Shown: positions 1,323 to 36,651 of the stretch, piece after piece
How the letters are laid out: each line of letters starts with the position of its first letter
How positions within the stretch are numbered: the stretch's first letter is position 1
DNA from: Patescibacteria group bacterium
Lineage (GTDB): Bacteria > Patescibacteriota > Microgenomatia > UBA10105 > UBA927
DNA length: 64,000 bases
Assembly: GCA_023379025.1 (NCBI GenBank)
Contig: JAMCTH010000004.1
Coordinates: 19,740-83,739, forward strand
Direction: 5' to 3'
Translations under genes and position numbers: made by a program
The notes under the pieces: generated by a model
Databases searched by the model: none
Seen by the model: the letters and a program-made list of their open reading frames with translations, nothing else
What the model was told of the DNA's origin: nothing

Positions 1323-2921
1323 CTAGCATGAGGGTCTCAATCCCATCATGCCATTAGGTCCGTAGTTAAATGGTATAACAGAGGTCTCCAAAACCTCTAT
1401 TGGGGGTTCGATTCCCTCCGGACCTGCTGAGAGAGAAATTGAGGCCGCGCCGGTCTGCCGGCTCTGCGCGGGTGGGGTCGCGCAGAGTGTTTTGAAGGGC
1501 TCGCGGAAAACGGCTGAGAGCCGCCGGTCTTTCAAAAAGAAGTTCGAGCCGATACGTTTGGCGAAGATTGCCAAATCTTCGCAGGCATTGTCTGCGCGCG
1601 CGATTTTATGCGCCTGAAAGGCGCTGTCTATAAATTCCTTCATGCGTTCGAGCCGTTTATTTTTCCCCGATAAATTGTCTTTCTTTTCTTCTTCCATCTG
1701 ACGCTTTACTTCTGAAAGCGTATTTTTCTTTTTCCGGTATGTTTCTTGGTCGATTGTTTGATCAAGAAGTCCATCAAGCAATACATCGAGTTTTCTGCTT
1801 ATTTCCACTAACTTTAATTCCAAAATTTGCTTTCGCTTTTCTACTCCACTCGTTTCCGATTCCGAATCGGCAACAAATTTTTGCCGCCACTCGTCCTCCC
1901 ACTCCGGCGGCAATCCCACAGAAGCAATCAAGAGACGAATCTGTTTCTCAAATTCGGAATCGGTTAGATATTTACTGAAACACGGACCGAATTTCTTTGT
2001 ACATCGGTAATATGTGTATGTGACCTTACCTCGCGTCGTGCGGTAGTATTTTGTATGGATTTCTCCTGTAATTGCTCCACCGCACTCTCCGCACCGCGCA
2101 AGTCCGACGAATGGAAAGTGATGCCCCTTAAAATGCGGCCGCTCGATCCGTATAAGCTCTGTCTGCACTTTATGAAACAAATCGCGGCTAATAATCTGTT
2201 CATGCGTGCCGTCATAATATTCGCCGAGGTGAACCATTTGACCGATATAAAATCTATTAGCAAGCATATTGCGAATGGTGTTGATATGAATGATGCGGCC
2301 GCTTTTCCTCCGAATGCCGCTATCTGCAAACATACGCGCAATATCAGTAAAAGAAACAGTACGCGTGGCAAATCGTTCAAACGATTTCTGCACGAGCGGC
2401 GCAGTCTTCGGATCAACGAGAATGGTATGTGCTTTGAGGTCATTCAGATACCCAAGTGGTGCATTATGCGGCCACACTCCGTTTCGCAATTTCTGCCGGA
2501 TGCCGCGCTTCACATTTTCCGAAAGGTTATCGACGTAATACTTAGACTGGCCGAACGCGATCGACAGCATAAATTTCCCCTGTGGTGTGTTATCAAACCA
2601 AAACGTCGGAAACTTGAGCCCTGCGAGCTTACCTGTGTCGATAAGGTAGATAATCCGACCGCCGTCTATAGAATTGCGTGCAAGCCTATCCGGATGCCAT
2701 GCGATAATACCCGCGGCCAATCCCCGTTCAATTTTACCTATAAGATCGGCAAATAGCGGACGGCCAGGTTCTTTGGCGGTTCTGGATTCGGTGATGAATT
2801 CGGAAATTTCTACTTGTTCCCGTTTCGCATATTCATTTATTTCTGCAACTTGTGCCTCTATGGATAAAACCTGCCTATCTTTCTCATCAGTCGATCTTCT
2901 GCAGTATGCGATGTATTTCAT
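1323..2921 (-). CDS. Large serine recombinase (resolvase catalytic domain, recombinase domain and zinc ribbon)
   Basis: N-terminal YCRRSTDEKDRQVLSIEAQ carries the catalytic Ser motif. WHPDRLARN follows. A C-terminal Cys cluster LARCGECGG...YYRC is present. The last ~68 codons read through repeat A' and the tRNA, so the true stop is uncertain. Confidence 0.85.
   Translation of the reverse strand: MKYIAYCRRSTDEKDRQVLSIEAQVAEINEYAKREQVEISEFITESRTAKEPGRPLFADLIGKIERGLAAGIIAWHPDRLARNSIDGGRIIYLIDTGKLAGLKFPTFWFDNTPQGKFMLSIAFGQSKYYVDNLSENVKRGIRQKLRNGVWPHNAPLGYLNDLKAHTILVDPKTAPLVQKSFERFATRTVSFTDIARMFADSGIRRKSGRIIHINTIRNMLANRFYIGQMVHLGEYYDGTHEQIISRDLFHKVQTELIRIERPHFKGHHFPFVGLARCGECGGAITGEIHTKYYRTTRGKVTYTYYRCTKKFGPCFSKYLTDSEFEKQIRLLIASVGLPPEWEDEWRQKFVADSESETSGVEKRKQILELKLVEISRKLDVLLDGLLDQTIDQETYRKKKNTLSEVKRQMEEEKKDNLSGKNKRLERMKEFIDSAFQAHKIARADNACEDLAIFAKRIGSNFFLKDRRLSAVFREPFKTLCATPPAQSRQTGAASISLSAGPEGIEPPIEVLETSVIPFNYGPNGMMGLRPSC
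1356..1426 (+). tRNA. tRNA-Trp (anticodon CCA)
   Basis: Manual cloverleaf: acceptor AGGTCCG/CGGACCT, D-arm GTTA-AATGGTA-TAAC, anticodon stem GAGGT/ACCTC with loop CTCCAAA, T-arm GGGGG-TTCGATT-CCCTC, discriminator G. No CCA is encoded. The 3' end abuts island repeat A. Confidence 0.7.
1427..1526 (+). repeat. Island repeat A' (attL arm): reverse complement of 2967-3066
   Basis: About 100 nt, perfect reverse-complement match to the left half of the central repeat block. It starts right after the tRNA-Trp discriminator, with CTG as the junction core. Confidence 0.8.
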
Positions 2922-3242: not shown

Positions 3243-3291
3243 ATTGCTAACTATAGTATGTAGAACTAAAGTTAGCAAGTGGCTATAATTC
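3243..3291 (+). promoter_or_regulatory. Candidate C-box/operator and -10 box upstream of the XRE (C-protein) gene
   Basis: Inverted repeat TGCTAACT-N15-AGTTAGCA followed by GCTATAAT, immediately 5' of 3279. Confidence 0.3.
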
Positions 3292-3509
3292 CCGTTAGAA
3301 CAATGAAAAAAGATGTCCTCATCAAATTCGGACAAAAAGTTCGCGAAGAAAGGTTAAAACGAAAACTTTCGCAAGAAGAGTTTGCCGATATTGCCGGTGT
3401 TCATCGTACATATATAGGCATGATTGAGAGAGCCGAAAAAAATATTACACTTGAAAACATCGAAAAAATAGCCAAAGCATTTAACTTTAATATCAAAAAT
3501 CTTTTTTAA
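3279..3509 (+). CDS. XRE-family HTH regulator, candidate RM controller (C) protein
   Basis: LSQEEFADIAGVHRTYIGMIERAEKNITLENIEKIAKAF matches an HTH_XRE domain. It is 76 aa and sits directly upstream of the putative REase. Confidence 0.6.
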   Translation: MAIIPVRTMKKDVLIKFGQKVREERLKRKLSQEEFADIAGVHRTYIGMIERAEKNITLENIEKIAKAFNFNIKNLF

Positions 3510-3517
3510 AAATTTCT

Positions 3518-4366
3518 ATGCTTCCTAACCCAAAATATTTAATTTCTGATAAGAGTTTTTGGGCGCATATTAAGTTTTTGTCTGAAAATTTAGGCTATTC
3601 TGACAGAGGAACCTCAAAACTAAAATCTTACACTAAAGAAGAAATTCTGAAAGTAATGCAACTAACAGGCCTAGACACTTCACACTTAACAAAAAATACA
3701 ATCCATGAAGATACTTACTTAAACACAATTGTAGGTTATTTGAACTACCGATCAAAAATTCTAGAGTCGGAAGTTGAAAAACAACTGATGACAAGAGAGA
3801 ACGCCAAGGAAATTTTTGAGGATTTGAAAAAAACATTAAAACCAAAATGTAAGCTTCCAATGAATAAACAAAGGGGTAAAAAGAAACATTACGCCTACCT
3901 GACTTGTATCGTAAACATGTTAACGGAAGCTACCCTAAAAAAGGCTACTTTTGACCAAGATCCACATTCCTTAACAATAATAACTAAAAATAAAATGCCG
4001 TTACGAACATTTACACGAAGATTTGATGGCGCATATCCAACGATACTCAATCCGTTAGCGATTTGGGAAATTAAAGAATACTACGGAACCACTACGTTTG
4101 GCAGTAGAGTGGCAGATGGTATATACGAATCAATCCTTGACGGAGAAGAATTATCTGAATTAAAGGAGAATGAACATATAGAAGTATTTCACTATTTGAT
4201 GGTTGATGATCATTTCACTTGGTGGATCAAAGGAAAATCATATCTTTGTAGAATAATTGACCTATTGCATATGGGGTTTGTAACTGAGGCAATATTTGGA
4301 AGAGAAGTATTAACTCGCTGGCCAATAGTTGTTGAAAGTTGGAAAAAAATCAGTTTACCACGTTAA
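3518..4366 (+). CDS. Putative type II restriction endonuclease, assigned by context
   Basis: Nine-nt gap after the C-protein gene and convergent with the Dam-family MTase. RRFDGAYPTILNPLAIWEIKEY gives a plausible PD-(D/E)xK arrangement (D ... EIK). No recognisable family beyond that. Confidence 0.35.
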   Translation: MLPNPKYLISDKSFWAHIKFLSENLGYSDRGTSKLKSYTKEEILKVMQLTGLDTSHLTKNTIHEDTYLNTIVGYLNYRSKILESEVEKQLMTRENAKEIFEDLKKTLKPKCKLPMNKQRGKKKHYAYLTCIVNMLTEATLKKATFDQDPHSLTIITKNKMPLRTFTRRFDGAYPTILNPLAIWEIKEYYGTTTFGSRVADGIYESILDGEELSELKENEHIEVFHYLMVDDHFTWWIKGKSYLCRIIDLLHMGFVTEAIFGREVLTRWPIVVESWKKISLPR

Positions 4367-5263
4367 AAGCAATCTCTCTTTAACGAATTCTCCATCCATA
4401 TTTTCTCCGGATTTCTGAAAACGTTTCAGCATGGAATGCCCATTATCTATAAATAATTCACGCTTAAACAAGTCTAACGGAAACTCAAAACTTAACACTT
4501 TATTTCCAGACTTTTTTGTGCCGTCGATTGACAAAGCCACCTTAGCTCCCTTTCTTACACAATCTTCAATCGCTGTAAAAAGATCTTTTAACTTAAAAGA
4601 TTGAGCGCCATATAGAATTGCTTGGCTATCTACATATGGTGGGTCGCAATATATTATATCCCCTTTTTCGGCTAAACGCATTGTTTCTCGATAGTCTGCA
4701 TGAAGAAACTTTGTATTTTTAACTCTGGAATTCCAGATGGCAACTCTATTTTCAAATGACTCTGGGGGTACTGGTTTGTGAGGTCCAATTGGAGTACTAA
4801 TTTTCCCTTCTTTTGTAAAACGCATGACACCACCATAACAAGTTCTTGAAATGAACAATAAATCAAGAGGATTCGGGTGAGCGTTATAGCTGTTTTTTAC
4901 TTTTTCGTAATGAGACTTTCGATCGGCTACAAATTGATTCCAATTTAAACTATAACTCTCAACTAATTTATCCGGAAAGTTTTGCAACAATTCCATCAAC
5001 TCAATTAAGGGCTTAAGCATATCACCAGCAATTGCTTTAGTTGGATTAAAAGTCGCCAAGACGGCCCCTGTCCCAACAAAAGGTTCTATGTATTTGTTAT
5101 AGTCTGCAGGAAACATTGAAACTATTTTTTCTGCAAATCTATGCTTATTACCCACCCACTTAAGTAATTGTGGCGGTGATCCAATAACTAGTGGTGTATC
5201 ATCAAACATTCTATTTTGAGTATATGTGGTAAATGACGAGATTGGAAGGACAAAAGGATTCAT
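4355..5263 (-). CDS. N6-adenine DNA methyltransferase, Dam/D12 class
   Basis: LKWVGNK, EPFVGTGAV (motif I) and IYCDPPY (motif IV) line up with E. coli Dam LKWAGGK / EPFVGAGSV / YCDPPY. Confidence 0.85.
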   Translation of the reverse strand: MNPFVLPISSFTTYTQNRMFDDTPLVIGSPPQLLKWVGNKHRFAEKIVSMFPADYNKYIEPFVGTGAVLATFNPTKAIAGDMLKPLIELMELLQNFPDKLVESYSLNWNQFVADRKSHYEKVKNSYNAHPNPLDLLFISRTCYGGVMRFTKEGKISTPIGPHKPVPPESFENRVAIWNSRVKNTKFLHADYRETMRLAEKGDIIYCDPPYVDSQAILYGAQSFKLKDLFTAIEDCVRKGAKVALSIDGTKKSGNKVLSFEFPLDLFKRELFIDNGHSMLKRFQKSGENMDGEFVKERLLLTW

Positions 5264-5266
5264 ACT

Positions 5267-5866
5267 TCAATTATTTCTTAATAAACCACAAAATACTCCT
5301 CTAATTTCGAGCTCTTTTGGATAGATATTAGAAAGTGTTTTATTTCGAGGCTCTAAATAGACTTTTCCATTTCTATTCCTAAAAACTTTGAGCGTGGCGC
5401 CCTTTTCCGTAATTGCGACTACTCTGTCTCCATCCTGTGCAGTTTTCTGATGCCGGACGACTATAACGTCGCCATCAAGGATATTATCATCCTGCATGCT
5501 TGTCCCTTTTACTTCAAGCGCATAATAATCACCCTTCCTGCTTATCATGGACAATGGTACATCGATCGGCTCCGGATTCTCGATCGGCTCTATTGGATTG
5601 CCAGCCGCTATAATGCCGAGCTTGAATATACGGCCAAACTGCTGAACAGTCGTACTGATACCGCGGGCTATATTATCTGTTTTTTGAAGAAATCCCCTCG
5701 TTTCAAGCTCTTCAACGAAATGCTGGGCAGTACTGACGGATTTTCGGAAATTTCCAGCAATCTCATGGAGCGAAGGTGAATACCCTTTGTTTTTGACGAA
5801 ATTTTTGATGAAATCCAACACCTGCTTCTGCTTCGGTGTGATTGTCATGGAAGTATTGACTTTCAT
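5267..5866 (-). CDS. LexA-like / S24 peptidase-family repressor
   Basis: N-terminal wHTH (KQKQVLDFIK...) is followed by an S24 domain GDYYALEVKGTSMQDDNILDGDVIVVRHQ with a downstream Lys. Transcribed divergently from the TIR-like gene. Confidence 0.75.
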   Translation of the reverse strand: MKVNTSMTITPKQKQVLDFIKNFVKNKGYSPSLHEIAGNFRKSVSTAQHFVEELETRGFLQKTDNIARGISTTVQQFGRIFKLGIIAAGNPIEPIENPEPIDVPLSMISRKGDYYALEVKGTSMQDDNILDGDVIVVRHQKTAQDGDRVVAITEKGATLKVFRNRNGKVYLEPRNKTLSNIYPKELEIRGVFCGLLRNN

Positions 5867-5925
5867 ACGCAGTTGTCCTATTATTAATTTATTACTTTTT
5901 TATGACTTTTGTCAATACTCAAAAT
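5867..5925. promoter_or_regulatory. Divergent promoter/operator region between the S24 repressor and the TIR-like gene
   Basis: Short AT-rich intergenic stretch containing a TGAC-N4-GTCA palindrome (atgacttttgtcaat) and a TATTGAC...GTCAATA inverted pair. Confidence 0.3.
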
Positions 5926-6520
5926 GAATGACCAATACCTATCACCGCTATTATCTCAAATTTTGAACGTGCCTGAAAAGCACAAGGTATTCGTAAGCTT
6001 CCATCACGAAGACCAAGCATATCGTGACCAATTTGATCAATTTTATAGTCAATATTTCATAAGCAAGTCTGTGGATTTTGGCGACATAGAACCGGACAAT
6101 AGTGACGAATATATCAAACGACTGATTCAAGAAGAGCACATCTCCGATACCAGCGTAGTTGTGGTTCTATATGGAGCAAGCACATGGAAAAGAAAACATA
6201 TCGACTGGGAGATGTCAGCGGCGCTTCAAGAAAAAGTCGGCGGACATTCTGGCTTAATACTCATGATCCTTCCCACATTCCCCGTCCGCCCGTACAACGC
6301 ATACGGTCAGTACGACGAATCGTTCCTGCATCCGTATTTTCATCCGAGAGCTTCTGCGAATCTGAAATCGGGGTATGCGACTCTATTATATTGGCCGGGC
6401 TTATATCCCAGCCTGCCTGCCGTACAAATGACTGATGCAATCCAAAACGCGTTTGACCGGCGAATAACCCATAAGAAACTTATTGACAATTCTCACCCGC
6501 AATATCAAAATAACCGCTAA
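5909..6520 (+). CDS. TIR-like domain protein (DUF1863 / ThsB-like)
   Basis: KVFVSFHHEDQAYRD and SVVVVLYGASTWKRKHIDWEMSAALQEK parallel the ThsB blocks RVFFSFHYQD and SVTCVLIGSQTFNRRWVRYEIMKSIEKG. Confidence 0.65.
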   Translation: MSILKMNDQYLSPLLSQILNVPEKHKVFVSFHHEDQAYRDQFDQFYSQYFISKSVDFGDIEPDNSDEYIKRLIQEEHISDTSVVVVLYGASTWKRKHIDWEMSAALQEKVGGHSGLILMILPTFPVRPYNAYGQYDESFLHPYFHPRASANLKSGYATLLYWPGLYPSLPAVQMTDAIQNAFDRRITHKKLIDNSHPQYQNNR

Positions 6521-6522
6521 GC

Positions 6523-7152
6523 ATGAACTTGAGTAATTTATTACGAATTTATGTCGATCATTACGCGCTAAACATAGAAATAGGTCTTATCCCTATCGGT
6601 ATCGCGATCGGTCTTGTTGTGATCCTTGTATTAAAAAAAGCTTTTAACTGGAATTTTGGTTTCAATGAAGTTGAACTTAATATAAATCTGGGCGGAATTG
6701 GAAATGTAAAAATCACGCCCAATCATGAGGTAAGGCAAATTGCTCATAAAGCATGGACAGAATTGGTTACGCGAAAGGCCGGTCTTCTATTTGAGGCGGA
6801 ACACGATGTAATCATCGAGGTGTATAACTCGTGGTATCAACTATTTAAAGAAATCAGACTGATGATAAGGAGCGTCCCGGCATCCCAGTTAAAAAATAAC
6901 GACACGAAACGCTTGATAGAAATTCTGGTAAAATCACTCAATCTTGGAATGAGGCCGCACTTAACAAAATGGCAAGCGAGATTTAGACGATGGTATGAGG
7001 CAGAATCTAAGAAGCCTAAAAACGCAGAAAAAAGCCCACAAGATATTCAAAAAAAATATGCGCGTTATGATGAACTCGTGGCAGACTTAATAAAAATAAA
7101 CGGCCAGCTTATTGAATATACTGAAGAACTGAAAAAACTATCCCTAAAATAG
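6523..7152 (+). CDS. Single-pass membrane protein of unknown function; putative partner/effector of the TIR-like protein
   Basis: Three-nt gap after the TIR gene suggests translational coupling. One TM helix (IGLIPIGIAIGLVVILVL), then a ~165-aa predicted soluble domain with a K/E-rich tail. No recognisable family. Confidence 0.5.
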   Translation: MNLSNLLRIYVDHYALNIEIGLIPIGIAIGLVVILVLKKAFNWNFGFNEVELNINLGGIGNVKITPNHEVRQIAHKAWTELVTRKAGLLFEAEHDVIIEVYNSWYQLFKEIRLMIRSVPASQLKNNDTKRLIEILVKSLNLGMRPHLTKWQARFRRWYEAESKKPKNAEKSPQDIQKKYARYDELVADLIKINGQLIEYTEELKKLSLK

Positions 7153-7790: not shown

Positions 7791-8474
7791 TCAGCGTGAA
7801 TGTGGGTCTTGATCGCGGGTCAGCAGTCGCCACGCTCTCCGGAGATTCCCATGGGTATACCACCAATGACGCGTGAGTCCCGTTGGGGAATACGTTTTTT
7901 CTTTCAACATAAAGCCATACTGTTTTTCCCACCGCGTGAACGCAGCTTGCCATATATGAGGATCTGTTGGCTTCTCGACGAGCATCAGAAGCGACGCCAC
8001 GCGTCTGAGCGCCTGCGTTGCTTCGAACGGGCTATGGAGCGGCAAAAGCCGCTTCGCTTGTCGATCGACGTGGGCAAGACACCGTTGATGGGGAATGTTC
8101 CCGAAATGGGAAGCTACTCCTGCCACAATGGATCCTTTCCAATCGCTCACTGCTCCCATGGGGAGATGGGTTCCCAAAAGTCCAGCAAGAACGGTGAGAT
8201 CCCGATGCATCGCTTCATAGGTCTCACTCGGAATGAATGACCACCAGAGATGTTCTTTCGTCGTCACGTTGCGGTGAATGAAAAAGACACCGACTCTCCC
8301 AAGCCACTTTCCATCGCACCCGTAGACCCACGGTGCATGGTTTGGAGCAGTTTTCGGAGGCAGGATGTGCCACACATCGGATGCCGTCAGTGGATGATCA
8401 AGGAATTGCCCAAAACGAAGAGAAAGTGTTGGACGGGACCAATCGTTGACGGAAAGAATTTCTTCCCGATTCAC
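7791..8474 (-). CDS. Transposase-like protein (possible DDE-family remnant)
   Basis: HQRCLAHVDRQAKRLLP resembles C-x2-H...R motifs of IS transposases. It lies directly adjacent to the island's right end and looks truncated relative to full-length transposases. Confidence 0.3.
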   Translation of the reverse strand: MNREEILSVNDWSRPTLSLRFGQFLDHPLTASDVWHILPPKTAPNHAPWVYGCDGKWLGRVGVFFIHRNVTTKEHLWWSFIPSETYEAMHRDLTVLAGLLGTHLPMGAVSDWKGSIVAGVASHFGNIPHQRCLAHVDRQAKRLLPLHSPFEATQALRRVASLLMLVEKPTDPHIWQAAFTRWEKQYGFMLKEKTYSPTGLTRHWWYTHGNLRRAWRLLTRDQDPHSR

Positions 8475-8684
8475 CCGTCCGCGGACAAACCGGGTAAACG
8501 CACCGAAATCTGCCCACGTTACGGACGGACGGGGGAATCGAACAAAGGATCGTGCACATACGAGACAGTTTTAGCAAAGGTTTGGGAGGTTGTGAAGGGC
8601 TAAACTGTTAATTCAAGACACTTTTTTCTTTACTTAAGCCGACTTTCTCTAGCATTATACCCCACATATCCCTATACTACGTCT

Positions 8685-10972: not shown

Positions 10973-13900
10973 TCAACGAACCACTGTCATCGCTGATGCC
11001 GTTGCCATATAGGAAAATGTTTGCTGTGTATATGCTTGGATTGTTTGATCATTCGCAATTGCCGTAAAAACAGGATCGTTCGGATAAATCGAATAACCGT
11101 CAATGCCATTACTGTCCTGAAGCTGACTAAATTGCCACAAGAGCACTCCGCCATTGTCCTTCGTGAATTTTTTTACTGCTGACGCAAGCGCCTGTGCGCG
11201 GCCGGCAAACTGTTCCGGAGTACAGCTCGGTGTTCCTGATGCAGAAGAACAGCTGGGCTCACAGTCTTTACAGACTGGCGGTCCATTACCGTGGTCTCCC
11301 AGTTCCCCGACATAAAATACCTTTCCAAGGCTTTGTGTCACTGCCTGAGCCTGCTGGCATTCACGGACACTCTCCGGACTATCGAGATATGCATGGCACG
11401 TCCCGGCGGAGATAAACGGTATCTGCATAATTTTTGTGTACTGAACCCCTCCGTCGGGGTAGGCAAGCACGTTGGTATTAAAACCCATAAGACCGGGAGA
11501 GATTAACACAGTCGGATTACTCTCGTGAATGATTTGCGCGGCATCGGTCATAAGAGCAATTTCTGCCGTACCGCATTCAGCCGTATCGCAGTGGGGCTCG
11601 TTAAACAGTTCAACAGCCAAGATTCGTTTGTTATATACGGTATTGGCCAAAACCGAATTTGAAATCTGTTTGATATACGGAATATAACTATCGTACGCTC
11701 CCTTCTGAAACCATTTCATGCGGCTTCCGGTACATGCGGGCGGATCCGTACACTGATACTGGGGATCGATCTCACCGAAATTGGCGAGGGAGATAATAAA
11801 CTTCATATCCGGTGCGTCGGCCGGTACATGATCCAGTACCGCCAGGATGGATTGTTCATCGAAACCGAATATCCGTACCACGGTAACTCCCTGCGCATGA
11901 AGATACGAAAGGGTTTTTGCCACTTGTTCCGGCGACCCTTTTCCGAGATTAAACGAGTTGAATCCGATAAAGTTGTTTTGTGTTACGGTAATGGCAGTGC
12001 CGGACGCTTTCGTTTGCGGAGAAGGACATGGTTCCGATTCACTACCGCATTGTATAATCGCATGGTTCGTGCTTCTGACGTCCGCAACATACCCCGGAAG
12101 ATAACCTTTCCCACCTCTTAAACCGCTTGACGAAGTAACAGGAAGACGAATGATGCGCTGAATAGACGTCACTATGGCATTCCATACCGATGCCAGAAAT
12201 TCCCAACCGCGCCGGAATATCCCCGACAGTGCGTTCCGTAACCCGTCAAGGAACCCCGGACCCTCTGGCTTTTCTTTGACATTTTTAAGCGGCATCGTTA
12301 CCGGTGTCGGGGTGGGTGTCACGGATGACAAGCCAGGGATAAGCGTCGGGGATGCATACGGTTCTGAACCGGTAGGACTCGGAAGAAGTGCAATATTGCC
12401 CCGGTAGAGGTAGGGTGTCGGGGTCGGAGCTCTTGCAACCGGAGGGTAATAATAGGTGTTTTGTCCGGTTTGATACGGAGTAGGGGTTGCGGTTGGAGCG
12501 GGTGTCGGCGTTGCCGTCGGAACGGGCGTCGGTGTTGCGGTAGGCGTCGGTGTTGGTGTAGGGGTGGGAGTTGCGGTCGGAATTGGCGTGGGTGTTGCCG
12601 TCGGAACGGGAGTGGGCGTTGCGGTAGGCGTCGGTGTTGGTGTAGGGGTGGGAGTTGCTGTCGGCAAGAGATATACCAGTGCCGGACCTCCTCCTATCGG
12701 CCCGGAAACCGCCGCGGAAGCTTGTGCCTGTATTCCGCCGCTTGATTGATTGGTCCCTCCGCCGCCGGACGACGAGGACGGCGATGAAGGCGTTTGCGGA
12801 GCCACAGATGATGCTCCCGGAGCCGGAGCCGGCGCAGGCGTCACATGAGGAAGATTCACCAAACCGGACAAACCAACCGTCGGCCAGGTAGGCAGGGAAT
12901 AGCCTGTTTCAGCGTTCTGAGGCAGAAGCGCACCAGTCACTGACTGCGCACTTCCCAATGACTGTGCCCGGGCAGTTTGGACGATCGTCTCCAGAATATT
13001 TTCTCCCTGGCCGATATATTCCCTGCCGTTAAACACCTTGGTCTTGTAATAGTCATAGAGGAGCGGAAAATCGTTTTTGAGCTGCTCGGGATGGACGACA
13101 TACTGGGTACCCGCACAGGCGAAGAATTCCATCCTTCCGCCAACGCTGCAGTTATAATCATGACTCAGAACTGTGTTCGCCGAATAGGCGGCTGCCTTCC
13201 CGTCACCCGGACGGAACTCGATATTATATGTTGCCAAAATCGCCCGGTAATCGCTTCTCTCACTGGCTAACCCCACCATCGTCCCTCCCTGATTTGGCGC
13301 GGATAATACCGCATACCGCTGCATATCCCAGGTATGAATGAGCTCATGGATGATCGCGGAAGCATAAGATTCTCTATAATAATTATCGTCAGGGCGTAAC
13401 GGCCATGGAATCATGATTGAGGAGTTTCCCCATGCCTCGCCGCCGAGATATCCCTGATCTACATTCGAGCGCATCATGAGATCAATTAACCGGCCGGTCG
13501 AGAGATTTGGCGGGAGGATAGCAAGCGTATTATCGAGGATATTGAGCTCATCCGGCGTCCAGTAACCTCTTGTCGCCAAAACCTTTATATTGTATTTTGC
13601 ATCCAACGCCAATTGCTGCGCTACCGTTGAATAAGCCAGTTGGGCTATTTCCCCCGCACGCTGTACATCGGTAATGATGGTAAACGTATAATCCGATCCG
13701 CATTCTAGTGTATGTCCGGAGGTATCGAGCATATAATCACCCGGCAGGCACTCACCGTTCCATTTCTTCTCGGGCGTACAGGTTACGACCCGGGTCTTAC
13801 TCGGGAGTACTTCCATATCCCCGGTTGTGCATGTTTGGTTAGCCAATTCGGCCAGTCGGGCTTTGTCTGCCGCATCAATTGCTGCGATGGCACTGTTCCT

Positions 13901-16900
13901 TTGTAAATCCTGGGCAGAAAGACCGCTGAGTCTCAGGCGTATAGCATCAACCGGAGGCAGTATGTTGTCGCAAAGCCATTCCGATACCGGTTCACCGGTA
14001 TTCAGACAATAGGCTTCCGACGCTCCCGCAATACCAACAGTTATACCGCCTGCTAATAAAAGTTTTCTTCCGTTGATGGCAGGTAATTGTATCGCGCCGC
14101 CTCTTCCCGTATTGGAGGCCAATTCTTCCGCCGTCAGGGTAAAGACATCCGGATCCCGTCCCGGGTTAAGGATGCTTATCCTCAGGCTGGACGATGCCGG
14201 ATTTTGAGCGCTCGTGCGGGCGGTATTGATGGCTTGCACCGCCTCCTGATCATTCATAGGATGGGCGACTATTCTGTTCACTTCCTTGCCGTTTTCATCA
14301 AACACCGTGATGGTCACTTCCGATCCGGTTCCGATCGGGTGCTCCTCCCGCACGAGCCCACCGAGATAGCGTTTTTCTATGGTGAGGACGGGATTTTCTA
14401 CAGGAGGCTGTTCTTTGATGCCGAAGATACGCCGTATCGTCTGCCCTGGGGTTCTCCCGGCAAGTTCCTGACTACTGAGAGGCGCCACCGTTGTAACCGT
14501 CTGACCTTCTGCTGGTGTCAAATGCATGGGGCTTTCAACTGCTCCTGCAGGATGCGGTCCGGGAAGGATGGTAATCCTGTCTCCCTGAAATCGGACCGGA
14601 ATTTCTGATCCGTCAATGCGTTGAATGATAATCTGGTCACCGTAGGATACCGGAGTCGTACCCAGGGATATTTCTGTCCGGACAATGTTTCCGCCGGGAT
14701 CCCTTGTCATCCGGAAGAGTTTATCTTCAGGGAGAAATCCGACTTCCGGCTGATCTCCTATGAGCACTCTTGTACCGGGTCGTGGAGTAAATGTAGTTAC
14801 GGGGTGTTCCATCCCAACCAATTCCTGCTGCACGGCATCTACCCGCGCCCGCGCGATATCGAGCCGGGATTGCGCGGCATTCCTTGCCTCGGCGGTAGTA
14901 GTACCCGTATAGGCATTGGTGGCATCGACGAGCTCACGCTCGGCCGCCTCCACTTCAGCCTGTACGGCCGCAAGTGTTCTGGTTGCTGCACCTGTCGGAA
15001 CCCCGCCGGTGCCGCCCAACAATGTCGGGCGCTCATTCCAGAGTGTGCGGAGCCGACCAAGAATTCCGCCGGATCCGGCTCCTCCGGCAGTTTCCATCGG
15101 TACCAGACCGGACTGCGCAAGAGATGCGGCAGCGGCCTGCTGTCGGGCTTCTCGAGTAATCAAATCAACCAACTTTTGGTTCTCTTGTGCAATTTTGGAC
15201 CTCAAAACCGGAGCTACCGGCTTCCCTGCCGCTTCTGCAGTTGTCTGCTCGGTAATAAGCTCTGATAGATTCTTTCTAGTAGCTTCCAAATCCGCCTCCG
15301 TTTGGGCAATTAATGCATTAAGATCTGAAGAACTTGTTGTAACTACGGGTTCAACTGCTGGTGCTGTACCGGTTACAGGTACTCCTCCTGCTGTCGTTGG
15401 CGTCACGACACTTACCCCCCTGCCTCCGGGTGTCTCAAACCGGAGAGAGCCATCCCGGGAAAGGATCTGGATCGAGTCGACAGAGGCGGTCGGGACATTG
15501 GCAACGGTTGGGGTGGTCCCGACCGGAAACTCCCGGGTAGCGCCATTGGTAAACCGGATGACCACGCGGTCTCCGTCTGCCAAGGCCGGAGAGGTAATTG
15601 CATTGCCACTCGCGTTGGTCGTTCTCACGGTTTGCCCCGGACGGAAGTCAGAAATCGTTGCACCGGAAACAGTTTCACCACTTGGTTGAAGTGCTGGTTC
15701 TCCAGAATAAAGCACATTTGCTTTAATTTTATTTGCGATTTCTTCACTCTGATAAAATAATTGCGTTTGTGGATCATAAAAATACCCACCTGCTTCTTTT
15801 CCTAGCTGTATTGGATCAATCGGTCTGCCTTCTGGAAGTTTCCCTTCCATTATTTGATAGACTTCTGCATATGTTAATGGTCTGTACTGTCCTACTGTCG
15901 GAAATGCTTGATCTTGAAATTGACTTGTAATAGCAAGCATTTGATCTTCTACTTGCACAGCTGTTGTTTCGGCACTAACAGGAATTTCAAATCTATAAAC
16001 ATTATCAGCTTCGAGATATCTCGCACCTAGGCGTACAGCAATAGCTTTATTCTCTGCAGATAATCCGTCTGCTGGTATCTCTAAATACGCTACACTACCT
16101 ACGTTTTTACCATTAGCACTGGTCACGGATGTAGGAATATTCTTATCCCATAAGTCTCTTGTTGGTCTTAACAATGGCGCTTCAATGATATCATCGAGTT
16201 GTGCTCTAGAACGAATAATATCGGCACTTACTTCTATTGCGGGCACATCCCTAACCAGTAAGTTATCTGCAAATGGTCTGGATCCCAAAGAATTGAAAAC
16301 TAGTTGTGTTTGTGTGCTTGGTGTCACGACGCTCACGCCTCGTCCACCTGGGGTCTCAAACCGGAGGGAGCCATCCCGGGAAAGGATCTGGATCGAGTCG
16401 ACAGAGGCGGTCGGGACATTGGCAACGGTTGGGGTGGTCCCGACCGGAAACTCCCGGGTAGCGCCATTGGTAAACCGGATGACCACGCGGTCTCCGTCTG
16501 CCAAGGCCGGAGAGGTAATCGCGTTGCCACTCGCGTTGGTCGTTCTCACGGTTTGCCCCGGACGGAAGTCGGAGATTACATCTCCGGCTGTCGGACGGAC
16601 CGAACTGGTCACCGGCTGGACCGCCGGTGGTCGTGGCGGTGTGGTACCGAGTCCGGAGCGGGCATATGAAGCTGCGGCTGCCTCCTGACGGGTCAACTGC
16701 GACGAAAGATCCGTTGCTTGCTGCTCCAGTCGTGCGAGTTGCTGCTCAAGCGCGGGATCTACAGTCTGTCCCGCAGTACGAAGCGCCGTAATCTGACGAT
16801 CCAGATCTCCTGCGGCAACCCGTACGCTTGCTAAATCATATTGTGTCTGCCGTACCAAAGAGCTTATCATAGCCTCTGATGAATCCAGTGGCGGCACGCC

Positions 16901-19900
16901 GGGTCTGCCGCTTGGCCGGTAAAAAAGATCCCGGATACGCTCGAGGAGACTTCTGTCTGTTACCGATAGTTGCGCGCTTGACGCAGCAAATGACTGCTTA
17001 CCCGGCGGGGATATAACCACTCCGTCTCCAGGTAAAATTCTCAGGGGTGCTTCCGTCCCGCCTATCGTTCCGGTTCCTGTCGGACGGCCGAAACGGTCAT
17101 AGACCGTTACCGTATCCCCGTTGTGAAGGATGACAGTATCAGTCACGGCACCATCAGGAGAAGTTTTGAGAAGCTTCATCCCGGAAGTGAGGACGGTTCC
17201 CTCAGAAGGTGCGGCTACAATAGGCGGCACCGTCACCTGAGAAACGACGGGTAAAGCGCTTCCGGAAGGCGCAACGACGACATTCGGCACATACTCTGAC
17301 GCCCGGAATACTTCAACTCCTTTGCCGGGAAGTACGACCACGTTTGTTGATGCGGTACCGCTCGTGACCCGTACGGCCGTCACATCACTCGGGTCATACC
17401 TGAGCCCTATGGGTTCTGCACCAACAGTGATCGTTTGGCGTTCAGGGATAAGACCAAGAATTTTTTCACGATAGGTGACGGTAACGACATCACCGGCCCG
17501 CAATTCCTGACCGATATTCTGGTAAGTAACGCCGTTTCTCGGAGTCATAATCCGGTCACCCGCTACAAGGCTATATGACGTTCTCGGCCCAGTGATCGTC
17601 GGAGGCATCTCCGAGTCAACAATTGCAGCCCATTGCGAATCAACCGATACCCCTCTGACCACCACGGGGAAACGGTTCCCCGTCACGTCTGCCGCAGCAA
17701 ACCCAAGTGAATCTCCCTGTGTATCATAAAGTACATAAGCGCGCAGGTCTCCGTTCTGAATCTGTTGAATAACATCTCCCGGGAGTTCCTGCAGCGCTTC
17801 CGGAGAAGATGCGGCAAACTCGGGGGTAACCGGTGTCGCGACAACACTTCCCCGTACGGTGACGGTGCCCGGTGAGGGCGCCTCAGGCGGTACCGGCGGA
17901 ATTTCTACCGGTGCCGTAGCAACTACCGGTGCCGGGGACACCGGAGGCTCAGCCGGAGGACGATAAAAGATATCGCGGATACGTTCGAAAATAGTTCTGC
18001 TTGACTGTTGGATTTCCGTGCGCGCTGCAGCAAATGACGGCTCACCCGGCGGAGTGATTACCACGCTGTCCGAGCCGGATAGCGTAAGCGGAGCCTGAAT
18101 CTGACCCAACGGCTGAGACTGCACAATCGGCCGGCCGGCACCGTCATACATCGATATCCTGTCTCCGGTATGTAGAATAATGCTGTCCGTGACCGTTCCG
18201 TCAGGAGAGACTTTCACGAGTTTCATCCCCGGTTGCAGTGCAAGTTCCGTATCCTGCGCGGTTAGTGAGACCTGCGGAATTGTGGCTGTCGGATATTGGC
18301 GCTCGAGAGTAGCTAGGTTTTCATTAAAACGCGCGACCACATTCTGGCTTGTGTATGCCGGCTCCGCGGATACGAGAAAGTCCGTTACTTGACGATCTGC
18401 ATAGACTGCTACCCCATCTGCAGTCATTCTGAAATTTACCGGAGCCATATCCGCGACGAAGCCGTGCTCTGCTAATGCCTCGGCGGTCCGGACGACACCC
18501 GGAATATCAGCTAGTTCCGGCTGAGATCCTTCAAGATAACGCGTCAGGATAAGCACAGAGCCATCGGGTTGAGAAATGACTTCTGTTGGGGGAATAAGTC
18601 CTTCTAAATCCCGGACGCGCAGCTGTACCTGCTGTATATTGCTTCCTACCGCCCGCTGGTAGACAACATATCGGGAACCGTTTGCGCGGCGGATGAGGTT
18701 CAGTTCAATTCCGTCGTTCTGAATGACCCGATCAATACCGGTTATGTCAGGTACGGAATCGAGAGCACGTGAAATTGCCCGATTAAACGGCTGGCTTCTA
18801 AATTCTGGAACCGTATATGATTTTGTAATGGCTTCAAGATGACTCAGTGCGTAATCGGAAAGAGCGACATATACATCAGGTGTTAGGAGCGTTGCCGTAT
18901 TTGCTCGAATATAGGCAATCTTGTCCGGTATCGACAGACCAAAATACTCACTCGGTAATTTCCCGGGTTCTATAAACGATTCAAGTTGCCTGAGCATGGC
19001 ATCGCTCACTCCGCTGCCTTGCGGCTGATCCGTAAACCGCGTCGCTATGTTTAACCACTCGTCAGCAACCGTTCTCCCATACGACTGCGGTGTCAGGATC
19101 CCCGGCGGTGTCAGGTGTTGGCCTTCTGTAAGCTGTGGGGCCTGTACAGGTGGTTCGATAATCGGTGGTTCCGGCGGACGTGCGAGCGTCGGAACATGCT
19201 CTGCATCCAGTATTGCCCCCCACTGCTTGAAATTGTCTACATGGACTGCCGGAGCAAACAGTGTGCCGTCGGTAGTCCGTGTCGCAAAGCCGAGCGAGTG
19301 GCCGTTTGTATCGGAGATGACGTAGACGGTCGCTCTCCCTGAAATGACGTCGTTTCTCAGTGTCTGCGGTACCGATGCCCATGCTTCCTCAGACCCCTGC
19401 GCAAATGCAGGCGTGACCGGCGTCGCTATGACATCCCCGGTATAGGGCACGATCCCTACCGCACCCGAAGAAACCGTCACCGGCGCTGCGCCTGGGGATT
19501 CAAAGGTCATGACTCCCCTGCTATTGACGACACGGATGCCCGCAATATCGGACTCCGGAACATTCACGGCCACCGGATCCGAACCCACGGCAAACTCCCG
19601 GGTCGCCGTTGTTCCTTTAAATGAAACCACCACGCGGTCACCCTCCTGAAGGGTCGTTGTAACGGGCAACGGATTTCCCGGTTCCCGGGAAAGTAACGTC
19701 TGTCCCGGACGGAAATCGGCAATAACCTCTGAACCCGGCAGCGCTTCTGCCGGGATTGACCGTGATGGTGGCACGACAGCCGGTGCAACCGGAGCTTCCG
19801 GTGCCGGAACTGCCGGTTCCTTCGGACCGAAAAACCGGTTCCACAGCGCCTGCAACGGATTCTGTCTGGGTACGGCGGGCACCCCTGCCTGAGCAACAGG

Positions 19901-22900
19901 AATTTCCTGTGCCTGCCGTAGCGATTCCGGAACCGGCACAACTTCAACCCGGGTCAGTGTCACGTCGACCGGGGCGTTCCCCACAATCTTCGTATTACCG
20001 GCTGCATCCGTCACCCGGATATTCGAAACGCGTTCTCCAACCCGTATGTCGGTGAATATATGCGGCTGCTCCTGGTAGACGGTCGCAGATACCCGCCTCC
20101 CGGTCGAAAGCGTCAACTCTACAGTGTCGCCTACATCAATCTTGCCTGTATCCAACACCGTCTGCACACCGTCCTGCTCTCTCAGTGTTATTCTGTCCCC
20201 GACTTGAAGGGAAAAGGGATTTTCGGGTGTAATCGGTTCGTTGGCCGCAGAGCGGGTAAGTACCCGGACCTGCGTCGGGCCGGCCTCAGCAGATGCGCCG
20301 GCTCCCGGACCGATTGTTGGCGCGTGTTCGGCATCGAGGATTGCCGCCCACTGCGTATCAACCGGTACATCAGAGACCACAACCGGAAGCCTGTTCGTCC
20401 GGACATTGCCGACGGCAAATCCGAGTGAACTCCCTTGGGTATCCGAAAGTACATACGCCGTCAGCTCTCCGCTTCTGATCTGGTCAATCACATCTGCCGG
20501 AATAGCATCCAAGGCTTCCGGAGATGTTGCCGCAAAGTCAGCAGTTACCGGTGTAGCAACCACGCGGCCTTTGACCGTAGCAGCGTCCTCAAGAACCACC
20601 GGTGCATCCGCCGGAGGCGCGATAGCCGGTATCTCAGGTGCTCCGGCAAGCTGCTGCGCCGGACGGACCGCCGGTTGTCTGTTAAACCAACGGTCAAAGA
20701 GAGACGGCGTATCCGTCCGGACGAACCCGTATGCCGTATCCGGCGCCGGAGCGCGGAAGGTCTGGACGCGGGCGTTTGCAGCATCCGGGACAAAGCGAAT
20801 CTGCTGTCCACGGACGGTTTCGTAACTTGCCGCAAGAGATGTTGCCGTCGTTTCATCTAGCCGCGCCGCGCGAAGCACCGTTCCGCTGTCGTCCAGAATC
20901 TGGATCTCTCCGGCAACACCGCTGTTTCTGATCCCGGTATACACGCGGTCCAGCGTATTGGTCACCGCCATCTGATCCTGGAATTTCGGAATCGGCGATG
21001 AAGAGAATCTGTTTTCAATGGCAAGCACCGCATCCTCTGCTTTACTCAAAGTCCGCGTAATCGCGCTGTCACTCCCGAAAATCTTACTGCTTATGACCGA
21101 AGCCGCACCCGGAAGCTGATGCAACATCGGACCTTCCTGTGCCAATGCAACCGGCTGCTGGACCACGCGCATACGCGGTATCGACGTTGCCTGCCCTACG
21201 TCCACCGTCGCATGACCCCCGCCACTAGTCTGTGATTCAAGAAACTTACCCCGGGTCACACCTTGTCCACCTGCTCGGTCTGCGTAGTATTCTGACAATC
21301 CACCGTCAATATTCGTTACCCTCGGATCTATAGGCACTCCTCCTTCGCTATGCCCATGCACGATCCCTTTCCCTCCGTATTGCCGAAGCATCATATCCAC
21401 ACCCTGGGAATTCAATTGACCTCGAGTTGTCAAGTCACCGGCTAATTCGCGAAGGGTCTTCGTCACGGTCCTGCCGGATGCATCGGTGAATGTTGCACTG
21501 CCTTTTTGTAAAATCGTACGGATATTGGCATTCACCTCGTCTACCGTCCGCCCGTATTGCAGATAGTTCACGGTATCGGCATGAAAATATAGGAGTCCAT
21601 CATTCAAATCAATCGCCTTAAGTGATTTCAGAAACTGCGCAACCTGTGGCTTCCCGTGAAGTTCAATGAGATCTGCAACGGTTGCGCCCGGATCGATGGG
21701 AGAAGTCTGCGCGGCAAGTTGAGCCGCTTCCTGAATACTCATGCCTCGACTAATAAAACTTTCCATTTGGTCATAGCTATAGACCATAGCCGCATCATGA
21801 TTGCCGAGAAACGTCTTAACCCGAAGCTGTCCTGTTGTTGGATTTACACCCGCCTCCCGCTGCAGATTCATAATCCGTTCTGCGGTTCCGACGGATGAAA
21901 CGCCTGTCGGCGCCCGGTCCACAAAATCACCGGTTAAGACCAGTTCATCATTCGGACCGCCGATCCAATGTCCTGACGGATCAAGGAGTTGCTTCCCAAC
22001 AACTTTTCCTTCAACGGATCTGGACTGTCCGCTCGTCATCCGGACGAGTTGATCCCAATCACCATGAACATCTCCTACGGCTACAGAAGTTCTCCCAACG
22101 CCTGCAGTAGCACGTACTGTAATCCTCTGGTTCAAACTATCCAAAAACTGTTGCCTTGCGCCCTTGAGCGTTTGCTCTACATCGGTGGCAAGCGTCTGGT
22201 TTGAAAGCATGCGCTGCGCCTCATTCCTTGCCCAGCCGGAACCGATGATTTGCCGGTCAAAATACTCCCCGGCAGCCCGCTGTATTTCCTGGCGGATTAC
22301 CCTTTCGTCAGTGATGCCCTGCGCAATCAGTTCCTGTGCCCTGTTTCTTGCAGCAGCATTTAGGCCTTCATTAATATTTGGTGCGATACCTTTGGAAACA
22401 TCTCCTATCTGCGATTGGGCCGATCTAGCCAGTCGGACTGGCTCAGCAACCGGAGCAGGCGGGGCTACAACCCGTGGTTGAACCCGCAGATAGTACCGTA
22501 CTCCTGCCGGCGTGGTAACAGCATCTACCGTAGCTCTTCCTATCTGATTATTGACAATGTCGCCAGTGAGTCCCCGAATTTGCTGCTCAACCTGCCGAGC
22601 TATACCCAAATCTCCCGTTGTCGCATAGACCTGGTCAAATACCAGGGAATTACCGCTTCTACTTGGATTGGTTCTGGGATCCAGCCACGCATTCACCCGG
22701 TCGCGGATCGCCTGCCGGGTTGCGGTATTTAGTTGATCCACCGATGCAGCTCCCTGAGTATTCGTCCGCCCGGCAAATTGCTGCAACTGTGTGTCCAGGT
22801 CATCTGTTATCCCGTTGATAATTGGTCGCACTTGCGTATCGACCACATTTTTGGGAATATTTCTGTTGATCCGCATGGTCACTGCTGCTTCTTCCGGTGT

Positions 22901-36283: not shown

Positions 36284-36355
36284 GCGGGAGTAGTTCAGCG
36301 GCAGAACGCGCGTCTCCAAGACGCGAGGTCCTGGGTTCGAGTCCCAGCTTCCGCT
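36284..36355 (+). tRNA. tRNA-Trp (CCA)
   Basis: Acceptor GCGGGAG/CTTCCGC, anticodon stem CGCGT/ACGCG with loop CTCCAAG, T-arm CTGGG-TTCGAGT-CCCAG. Canonical position upstream of secE. Confidence 0.7.
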
Positions 36356-36457: not shown

Positions 36458-36463
36458 TTTCGT

Positions 36464-36535
36464 GCCCCCGTAGCTCAGGTGGCAGAGCACCTGCTTCTAA
36501 GCAGAAGATCGCGAGTCCGAGTCTCGCCGGCGGCG
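36464..36535 (+). tRNA. tRNA-like, Arg(TCT)-like, with an atypical anticodon arm
   Basis: D-arm TAGCTCAGGTGGCAGAGC is canonical. T-arm GCGAG-TCCGAGT-CTCGC. The anticodon region CCTGC-TTCTAA-GCAGA has only a 6-nt loop. Acceptor has one C:C mismatch. Confidence 0.4.
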
Positions 36536-36651
36536 TTCGAGGAGGTGGGTCGCAGAAACGAGTAGCCCGTAGCTTAACGAGCTTCCTAGGAGCTTACTCG
36601 CTTCTCACTCGCCTCCTCGATAATTTCGTTTGTTCGCTTGTGGTCGTACGT

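Follow-up and report, generated by a model that had tools for sequence, protein, structure and literature searches.

A TIR and membrane-protein gene pair of a Patescibacteria genome, probably a type VI Thoeris system, and the mobile lexA–methyltransferase cassette that faces it

Which defence system is formed by a TIR gene and a membrane-protein gene standing together in a Patescibacteria genome, and does the lexA gene that faces them belong to it? The genes lie in a stretch of 64,000 nt, called here the window, which covers positions 19,740 to 83,739 of the forward strand of contig JAMCTH010000004.1 (assembly GCA_023379025.1) from Patescibacteria group bacterium (Microgenomatia; UBA10105; UBA927); coordinates below are window positions unless a locus identifier (L and a number) is given. 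The TIR gene, thsB (5909..6520, + strand), encodes a ThsB-family protein of 203 aa when read from TTG at 5909, with a likelier start at ATG 5924, and is followed by thsG (6523..7152, +), encoding a 209-aa protein with an N-terminal transmembrane (TM) helix and a helical bundle; lexA (5267..5866, −) is divergent from them. A first-pass annotation had taken the pair for a candidate undescribed TIR-based defence module. The three open reading frames (ORFs) are confirmed where it had placed them, and the distance from the TIR stop codon to the next ATG measures 2 nt rather than the 3 nt it gave. The thsBG pair rides on a mobile island of ~6 kb in this genome, which belongs to the candidate phyla radiation (CPR).

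Identity and predicted working of the gene pair

The TIR protein matches PF08937 (ThsB_TIR) with an E-value of 3.5e-17 and 63 bits against a cut-off of 21, several PADLOC ThsB models also match it, and the two hallmark blocks from which it had been first recognised, KVFVSFHHED and SVVVVLYGASTWKRKHIDWEMSAALQEK, are both found. The earlier assignment to the ThsB/DUF1863-type TIR proteins is therefore upheld by the profile search. The alignment of homologues favours ATG 5924 over TTG 5909 as the real start of thsB. E101 of the window ThsB, the putative catalytic Glu, is invariant in the alignment, where its counterpart in B. cereus MSX-D12 ThsB is the Glu of the RRWVRYEI segment.

A single hydrophobic segment of the membrane protein, ThsG, spans about residues 18-40 (Kyte-Doolittle maximum 2.68) and is a helix at 22-40 in the AlphaFold2 (AF2) monomer model; in this model, with a pLDDT of 89.8, residues 68-208 form a helical-bundle cytoplasmic domain. 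No credible family match is obtained for ThsG in Pfam, PADLOC, NCBIfam or PHROGs. Weak matches to FTA4, DUF6684 and CARF_HEPN were treated as noise. Domain-library scans show no Macro domain in ThsG, and a Pfam scan of the neighbouring genes shows no SIR2, SLOG or Macro domain there, as had been said of them. Domain scans, hydropathy and the AF2 model thus agree with the earlier description of a single N-terminal TM helix followed by a soluble domain, which is neither the type I nor the type II ThsA.

A preprint of December 2025 by Yirmiya et al. (bioRxiv 10.64898/2025.12.03.692087) introduces Thoeris types V-XI, among which type VI consists of ThsB and an effector, ThsG, annotated as DUF6650 (PF20355) and carrying N-terminal TM helices in some cases. 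According to the same preprint, type VI TIRs produce 2'cADPR, an isomer of cyclic ADP-ribose (cADPR), on infection; 2'cADPR in the medium leads to growth arrest of cells carrying the validated Ga0209396 type VI system; and AlphaFold3 (AF3) predicts a hexameric ThsG tube whose basic pockets lie between the protomers. The validated system, from metagenome 3300025731, is made of the TIR Ga0209396_100023224 and the effector Ga0209396_100023225, the latter listed as "DUF6650 and TM" (bioRxiv 10.64898/2025.12.03.692087, Table S1/S2), and defends E. coli against SECphi18.

The TIR domain listed in Table S1 is 50% identical to the window TIR. Through a protein (P0121) 100% identical to this listed domain, the validated Gammaproteobacteria scaffold was recovered as L081, in which the TIR gene (4001-4561) is directly followed by the gene of a 211-aa effector (4561-5196). 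The window ThsB is 46% identical to the L081 ThsB (E 2e-56), and the window ThsG is 44% identical to the L081 effector over 196 of its 209 residues (E 9e-52). The window TIR also matches the type VI TIRs of E. coli S1 and ACN001 with E-values of about 1e-19, compared with 7e-7 for type I ThsB. Because both proteins are full-length homologues of a tested system, the pair is assigned to type VI Thoeris, and judging from the sequences, 5909-7152 is very probably a two-gene type VI Thoeris anti-phage system. The TIR-based defence pair is thus real, and is a CPR-borne member of an already described type; the word "undescribed" has to be given up.

The sequences and the model show to which domain family ThsB belongs, that ThsG has a single TM helix and a helical fold, that the two genes are coupled in operons across many phyla, and that both proteins are homologous over their full length to the tested system; how the pair may work is suggested by this homology. 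ThsB would sense phage infection, and its TIR active site (Glu101) would convert NAD+ into a cADPR isomer, most likely 2'cADPR. ThsG, anchored in the membrane via its one N-terminal helix, would oligomerise (a hexameric tube in the preprint model), and the signal would bind it in positively charged pockets between protomers. ThsG would then compromise the membrane, and the growth of the infected cell and the replication of the phage would stop. In this course of events the signal molecule, the oligomeric state and the damage to the membrane are all predicted from the validated system.

Several observations weigh against the assignment. PF20355 (DUF6650) is undetected by hmmscan in the window ThsG (E up to 0.1), and likewise in 33 aligned members of the family (E up to 10) and in the validated effector (E up to 0.01); type VI membership thus rests on direct homology to the tested effector, and the DUF6650 label of the TM variant is not reproduced. 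Nor does a link to the TM-less DUF6650 proteins appear, for the top 150 matches of a representative search are all close relatives of ThsG, and a TM-less 165-aa ThsG homologue beside a TIR_2 protein on a Calothrix plasmid has no PF20355 match either. A match on a C. perfringens plasmid turned out to belong to a caspase-type (type IV) system. The assignment for the window organism comes from sequence, and its reference is a preprint. Finally, the window proteins share just 44-46% identity with those of the tested system, so that their exact signal isomer could differ, and some variants within one Thoeris type are unresponsive to the expected molecule (bioRxiv 10.64898/2025.12.03.692087).

This last point leads to a rival explanation, in which the pair would be Thoeris-like and of the same family but use 3'cADPR, canonical cADPR or an unknown ADPR derivative, and would be a functional variant rather than strict type VI. 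The ThsB identity of just 46% would allow it, as would two statements of the preprint, that the effectors paired with closely related TIR clusters differ and that the expected isomer has no effect on some systems of the same type (bioRxiv 10.64898/2025.12.03.692087). We consider it unlikely, however, since the TIR and the effector are both full-length homologues of a system responding specifically to 2'cADPR, and the pocket residues of the effector are strongly conserved across the ThsG family.

The ThsG family and its TIR neighbours

The conservation of ThsG is seen in 901 homologues of ~210 aa, none of which has a precomputed Pfam domain; in a library clustered at 50% identity the family corresponds to 783 clusters at E <= 1e-3. 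The alignment has four near-invariant blocks, AHKAW-EL-TRKAGL, DV-EVY-SWY-LF, LN-G-RPHLTKWQA-FR-WY and PQ-IQ, with R84, K85, R112, R144, H146, W150, W157 and Y158 as invariant basic and aromatic residues. Judged from the alignment, such invariant Arg, Lys, His, Trp and Tyr residues are compatible with a nucleotide-binding pocket. Overall, the TM-bearing ThsG family is large and spread over many phyla, and since current Pfam models miss it, annotation pipelines will miss ThsG.

For the genomic neighbourhood, one genome per species was scanned, and 80 ThsG loci were fetched, with genes callable in 79. ThsG relatives are present in 305 species genomes from Patescibacteria, Acidobacteriota, Bacillota, Bacteroidota, Pseudomonadota, Planctomycetota, Actinomycetota and other phyla, and a search of a phage collection finds none. 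A ThsB-like TIR gene is near ThsG in 64 of the 80 loci by phmmer and in 70 by profile. In 53 of the 79 loci with callable genes the TIR gene is the immediate same-strand neighbour of ThsG, with a median gap of 0 nt, lying upstream in 40 of them and downstream in 13, and in 15 further loci it is within three genes. The TIR and membrane-protein genes, which had been regarded as coupled from the window locus, are thus conserved neighbours. Of 67 additional loci, 65 from metagenomes and two being copies of the validated scaffold, 55 have a TIR.

Two ThsB-like TIR genes lie at most three genes from ThsG in 10 of the 79 loci, and two TIR genes beside one effector are common in Thoeris. The Bacillus-type clade of type VI TIRs also adjoins the ThsG family, for example on an Aureispira plasmid with three TIR genes and ThsG. 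Such arrangements bear on another alternative, that the TIR is an NAD+-depleting killer, as the TIRs associated with CBASS, Pycsar or pAgo are, and the membrane protein its sensor, anchor or antitoxin. Many bacterial TIRs are indeed NADases, and no SLOG, Macro or SAVED signal-binding domain is recognisable in the membrane protein. Against this, several different TIR genes beside one effector fit an arrangement in which many sensors serve a single effector, a signalling nucleotide is the product of the homologous system, and external 2'cADPR arrests cells carrying that system; the killer model is accordingly very hard to credit, and the reading of the pair as a type VI Thoeris signalling system is preferred.

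Eleven loci have no ThsB-like TIR nearby. At least five of them have ThsG at a contig end, and in two a larger protein ending in a TIR_2 domain is encoded directly upstream. Proteins of ~370 aa ending in TIR_2 (L009:3937-5049 and L012:4698-5828) precede the ThsG relatives of L009 and L012, and a 1296-aa nSTAND1-WD40 protein (L027:1954-5844) precedes that of L027; these three have no ThsB-type neighbour. Two further arrangements were noticed. In Clostridium (L017:3333-5296, also L018, L020, L026, L028 and L036) the order is ThsG, a DUF1883-TIR_2 protein and a ThsB-type TIR, directly following the gene of an Eco47II-type restriction endonuclease. In Bacteroidota (L039:472-4442, also L032, L044, L069 and L077) ThsG and a ThsB-like TIR are found in a cluster with genes of thymidine-hypermodification pathways, for a 5-hmdU DNA kinase (HMUDK_hel), a thymidylate-synthase-like protein, Nmad1 (DUF1599) and Nmad2, which may form one larger system with the pair or a separate system beside it.

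The lexA cassette, its promoter region and the island

We now turn to the gene facing the pair. The product of lexA, 199 aa, has a helix-turn-helix (HTH) domain and an S24 autopeptidase domain (PF01726, LexA_DNA_bind, and PF00717, Peptidase_S24), and scores 146 bits against the cut-off of 111 for the TIGR00498 lexA equivalog. Its translation retains the Ala88-Gly89 cleavage site, Ser123 and Lys160. By these features it is a real LexA, predicted to be catalytically intact, and the earlier description of a LexA-like S24 repressor divergent from the TIR pair is correct.

The gene heads a lexA–methyltransferase operon, in which it is followed after only 3 nt, in the same orientation, by the gene of a D12-class Dam-type N6-adenine methyltransferase (4355..5263, −; PF02086 E 2.4e-35, PADLOC MTase_II E 1e-64). 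Convergent with the methylase gene is that of a type II restriction endonuclease with DUF7690 and DUF7687 (3518..4366, +; PADLOC REase_II E 7.6e-67), and upstream of the latter is the gene of an HTH_3 controller (C) protein (3279..3509, +; PADLOC Control_protein E 1.2e-21). Next comes the gene of a large serine recombinase (1323..2921, −), which has Resolvase, Recombinase and Zn_ribbon_recom domains and is probably the integrase of the island. The GC content of the island is 33-44%, compared with 52% for the whole window. The restriction-modification (RM) system, the large serine recombinase and the low GC together confirm the island context, and the defence-island setting beside an RM system, as first described, is right.

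Does LexA then form a part of the Thoeris system? Among the 80 genome loci, a LexA homologue is near ThsG in only one, L002 from Saccharibacteria. LexA itself has hundreds of homologues of 65-90% identity in Microgenomates such as Gottesmanbacteria and Collierbacteria, and in nine of the ten distinct loci examined a DNA methyltransferase gene comes directly after lexA or is fused to it. The endonuclease gene is convergent to the methylase gene wherever the far side is readable, usually with a C-protein gene before it. The partners on both sides vary. A D12 methylase lies downstream of lexA in the window, where the divergent partner is type VI Thoeris, and also in L153, which has the same RM system and a divergent AAA_15/21/23 ATPase. 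Vsr and a C5 methylase are found in L148 (Collierbacteria), facing a CD-NTase and Cap15 (CBASS), in L083, facing type VI Thoeris, in L156, facing AAA_15 and DUF2130 and followed by a large serine recombinase as in the window, and in L157, facing DUF2130. A C5 methylase is found in L154, facing DUF8370, and in L155, facing ThsB_TIR and 8xMP. In L002 a single 500-aa protein combines LexA_DNA_bind, S24 and D12 methylase, opposite two TIR genes and ThsG. The exception is L151/L152, where lexA is followed by a 60-aa ORF and then by an HNH_2 endonuclease gene. L156 matches the window in its whole gene order, i.e. partner, lexA, methylase, endonuclease, C protein and recombinase. As for the Saccharibacteria fusion gene (L002:1231-2733, −), a second D12 methylase gene lies after it. 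Housekeeping genes outside the cassettes vary between loci; taken with the recombinase and the low GC, this variation points to a cassette that is mobile and not to a lexA locus fixed in the host. Thus lexA belongs to a mobile lexA–methyltransferase/C-protein–endonuclease cassette and not to Thoeris itself.

The divergent layout could also be taken to mean that lexA, thsB and thsG are one dedicated three-gene DNA-damage-inducible defence unit. In support, the layout with a shared promoter region of ~60 nt recurs in L002 and in L083/L084, where lexA is divergent from thsB-thsG and LexA and ThsG are 68% and 76% identical to the window proteins, and a 278-aa S24 protein is encoded just upstream of thsBG in L091. 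However, LexA adjoins ThsG in one genome locus out of 80, a pairing confined to CPR; in other loci CBASS, AAA_15 ATPases, DUF8370, TIR with 8xMP or DUF2130 stand opposite the same lexA (79-87% identical) and the same promoter; each of those lexA genes is either in one transcription unit with a DNA methyltransferase gene or fused to it; and the palindrome proposed as operator, described below, occurs at chance level. The dedicated unit is already largely refuted by these facts, and we regard it as highly unlikely.

What remains is a cassette-borne lexA whose promoter region is shared with an exchangeable partner. This divergent region lies at 5856..5923, and the ~60 nt directly before lexA are conserved at the DNA level in nine lexA loci regardless of the partner (alignment A2). 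For lexA, a promoter-like site has its −35 box TTGACA at 5915-5910 and a −10-like box at 5891-5886. The opposite promoter-like site, for thsB, has the −35 box TTGACT at 5856-5861, which falls in the conserved first codons of lexA (codons 2-4), and the −10 box TATTAT at 5879-5884, with a spacing of N17. Between the lexA −35 and start codon in the nine loci lies a conserved element, AGTAATAAATTAATAAT at 5880-5896, and the start codon of the partner gene is about 10-30 nt beyond the lexA −35. Only in L083 and L156 does the conserved promoter element AGTAATAAAYTAATAAT take the form of a perfect TAGTA-N6-TACTA palindrome, and it has no second copy within the 64-kb window. With this geometry, a repressor bound between the two −10 boxes could shut both directions.

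An operator had been proposed in the TGAC-N4-GTCA palindrome of this region. The palindrome is indeed present at 5903-5914 (TGACTTTTGTCA), overlapping the lexA −35, but chance alone would give 0.76 such sites per window, at least one occurs in 54 of 100 shuffles, and it is kept in only three of the nine related promoters; we therefore reject it as the operator. Accordingly, the LexA switch suggested in the first-pass annotation is supported only in part: the conserved bidirectional promoter region makes it a reasonable idea, whereas the proposed operator is at chance level and LexA is no general part of Thoeris (one of 80 loci). Separately from the Thoeris mechanism, LexA may co-repress thsBG across the conserved region facing thsB; from the promoter sequences such control of the divergent genes is plausible, as a property of the cassette rather than of Thoeris.

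A broader idea is that Microgenomates/CPR bacteria carry a mobile cassette in which LexA and RM are linked and a bidirectional LexA-controlled promoter serves interchangeable abortive-infection-type systems, giving a damage-triggered two-layer defence. The cassette would be ordered as serine recombinase, C protein, endonuclease, methyltransferase and lexA, and the systems plugged into it would be type VI Thoeris in the window and CBASS-Cap15, TIR with 8xMP or AAA_15 ATPases elsewhere. DNA damage, from restriction breaks or phage attack, would cleave LexA; the methylase and the second-line suicide system would then both be expressed more strongly, so that the two layers would be wired together. 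The LexA–methyltransferase fusion of L002 would be a Rosetta-stone sign of the functional link between LexA and RM. We hold this idea as tentative and less likely to be true than not to be. If true, bacteria of small genome might couple first-line RM to second-line abortive infection through the SOS signal. No paper describing a LexA–RM–defence cassette in CPR was found, which is not proof that there is none, and the type VI preprint (bioRxiv 10.64898/2025.12.03.692087) makes no mention of LexA. The cassette may be a more novel lead than the Thoeris pair itself.

Some further features surround the island. The 3' end of the recombinase gene overlaps a tRNA-Trp gene (1356-1427, +), which stands on the opposite strand to it and may be the integration site or borne by the island. 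It is one of two tRNA-Trp(CCA) genes in the window, the other being at 36284-36355, and the two have only 32 of 72 positions in common. Repeats of the tRNA-Trp sequence, sought near the right end of the island as att sites, amount to an 11-mer on the opposite strand at 8533, which is not convincing. Just past the right edge of the low-GC island, 7791-8474 (−) encodes a 227-aa relative of IS1249/IS256-family transposases, a fragment scoring well below the full-length cut-offs of the models. To the left of the recombinase and tRNA-Trp genes, 183-932 (−) encodes a 249-aa protein with the PaaX central Cas2-like domain (PF20803). Farther to the right, 10973-29971 (−) is a single ORF of 6332 aa. Its product contains many internal repeats and linkers rich in proline and threonine, a membrane segment is predicted at its N-terminus, and in these features it resembles the giant surface proteins that are typical of CPR genomes. 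A cluster of tRNA genes (Asn, Trp, Glu, Pro) includes, at 36463-36536, a tRNA-like gene called by ARAGORN, which marks its anticodon as undetermined and gives two bases for it ('ct').

Comparison with known systems

For the regulatory part, the nearest parallels are DNA-damage-responsive regulators of the CapH/CapP or CapW/BrxR type, which occur beside CBASS, BREX and other defence systems. In common with these, the window has a damage-responsive repressor divergent from an abortive-infection-type system, and the repressor is found beside several unrelated systems. The window regulator is instead a canonical LexA (HTH and S24), whose gene is co-transcribed with or fused to that of an RM methyltransferase, and its regulatory role is a prediction.

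Among the Thoeris systems, type I (ThsB with the SIR2-SLOG effector ThsA, signal 3'cADPR) shares with the window the PF08937 TIR family, the catalytic Glu and the signalling logic, whereas the window locus has no SIR2 or SLOG and its effector is membrane-bound and not an NADase. Type II (ThsB with a TM-Macro effector, signal His-ADPR) is closer in that a TIR sensor is combined with a membrane-anchored effector thought to breach the membrane; the window differs by having no Macro domain, one TM helix, an unrelated helical domain and a TIR of a different clade. The closest is type VI, represented by Ga0209396. Both have a two-gene operon, TIR then effector, with overlapping or abutting genes, an N-terminal TM helix followed by a helical effector domain of ~165 aa, and a mobile-island setting. 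The window host, in contrast, is a member of CPR/Patescibacteria, which are not named among the type VI phyla in the preprint text, and the window operon, known by its sequence, is set against the promoter of a lexA–RM cassette, which is absent from the preprint. With the window pair, type VI Thoeris, which was not defined as a family until late 2025, gains a member from CPR/Patescibacteria.

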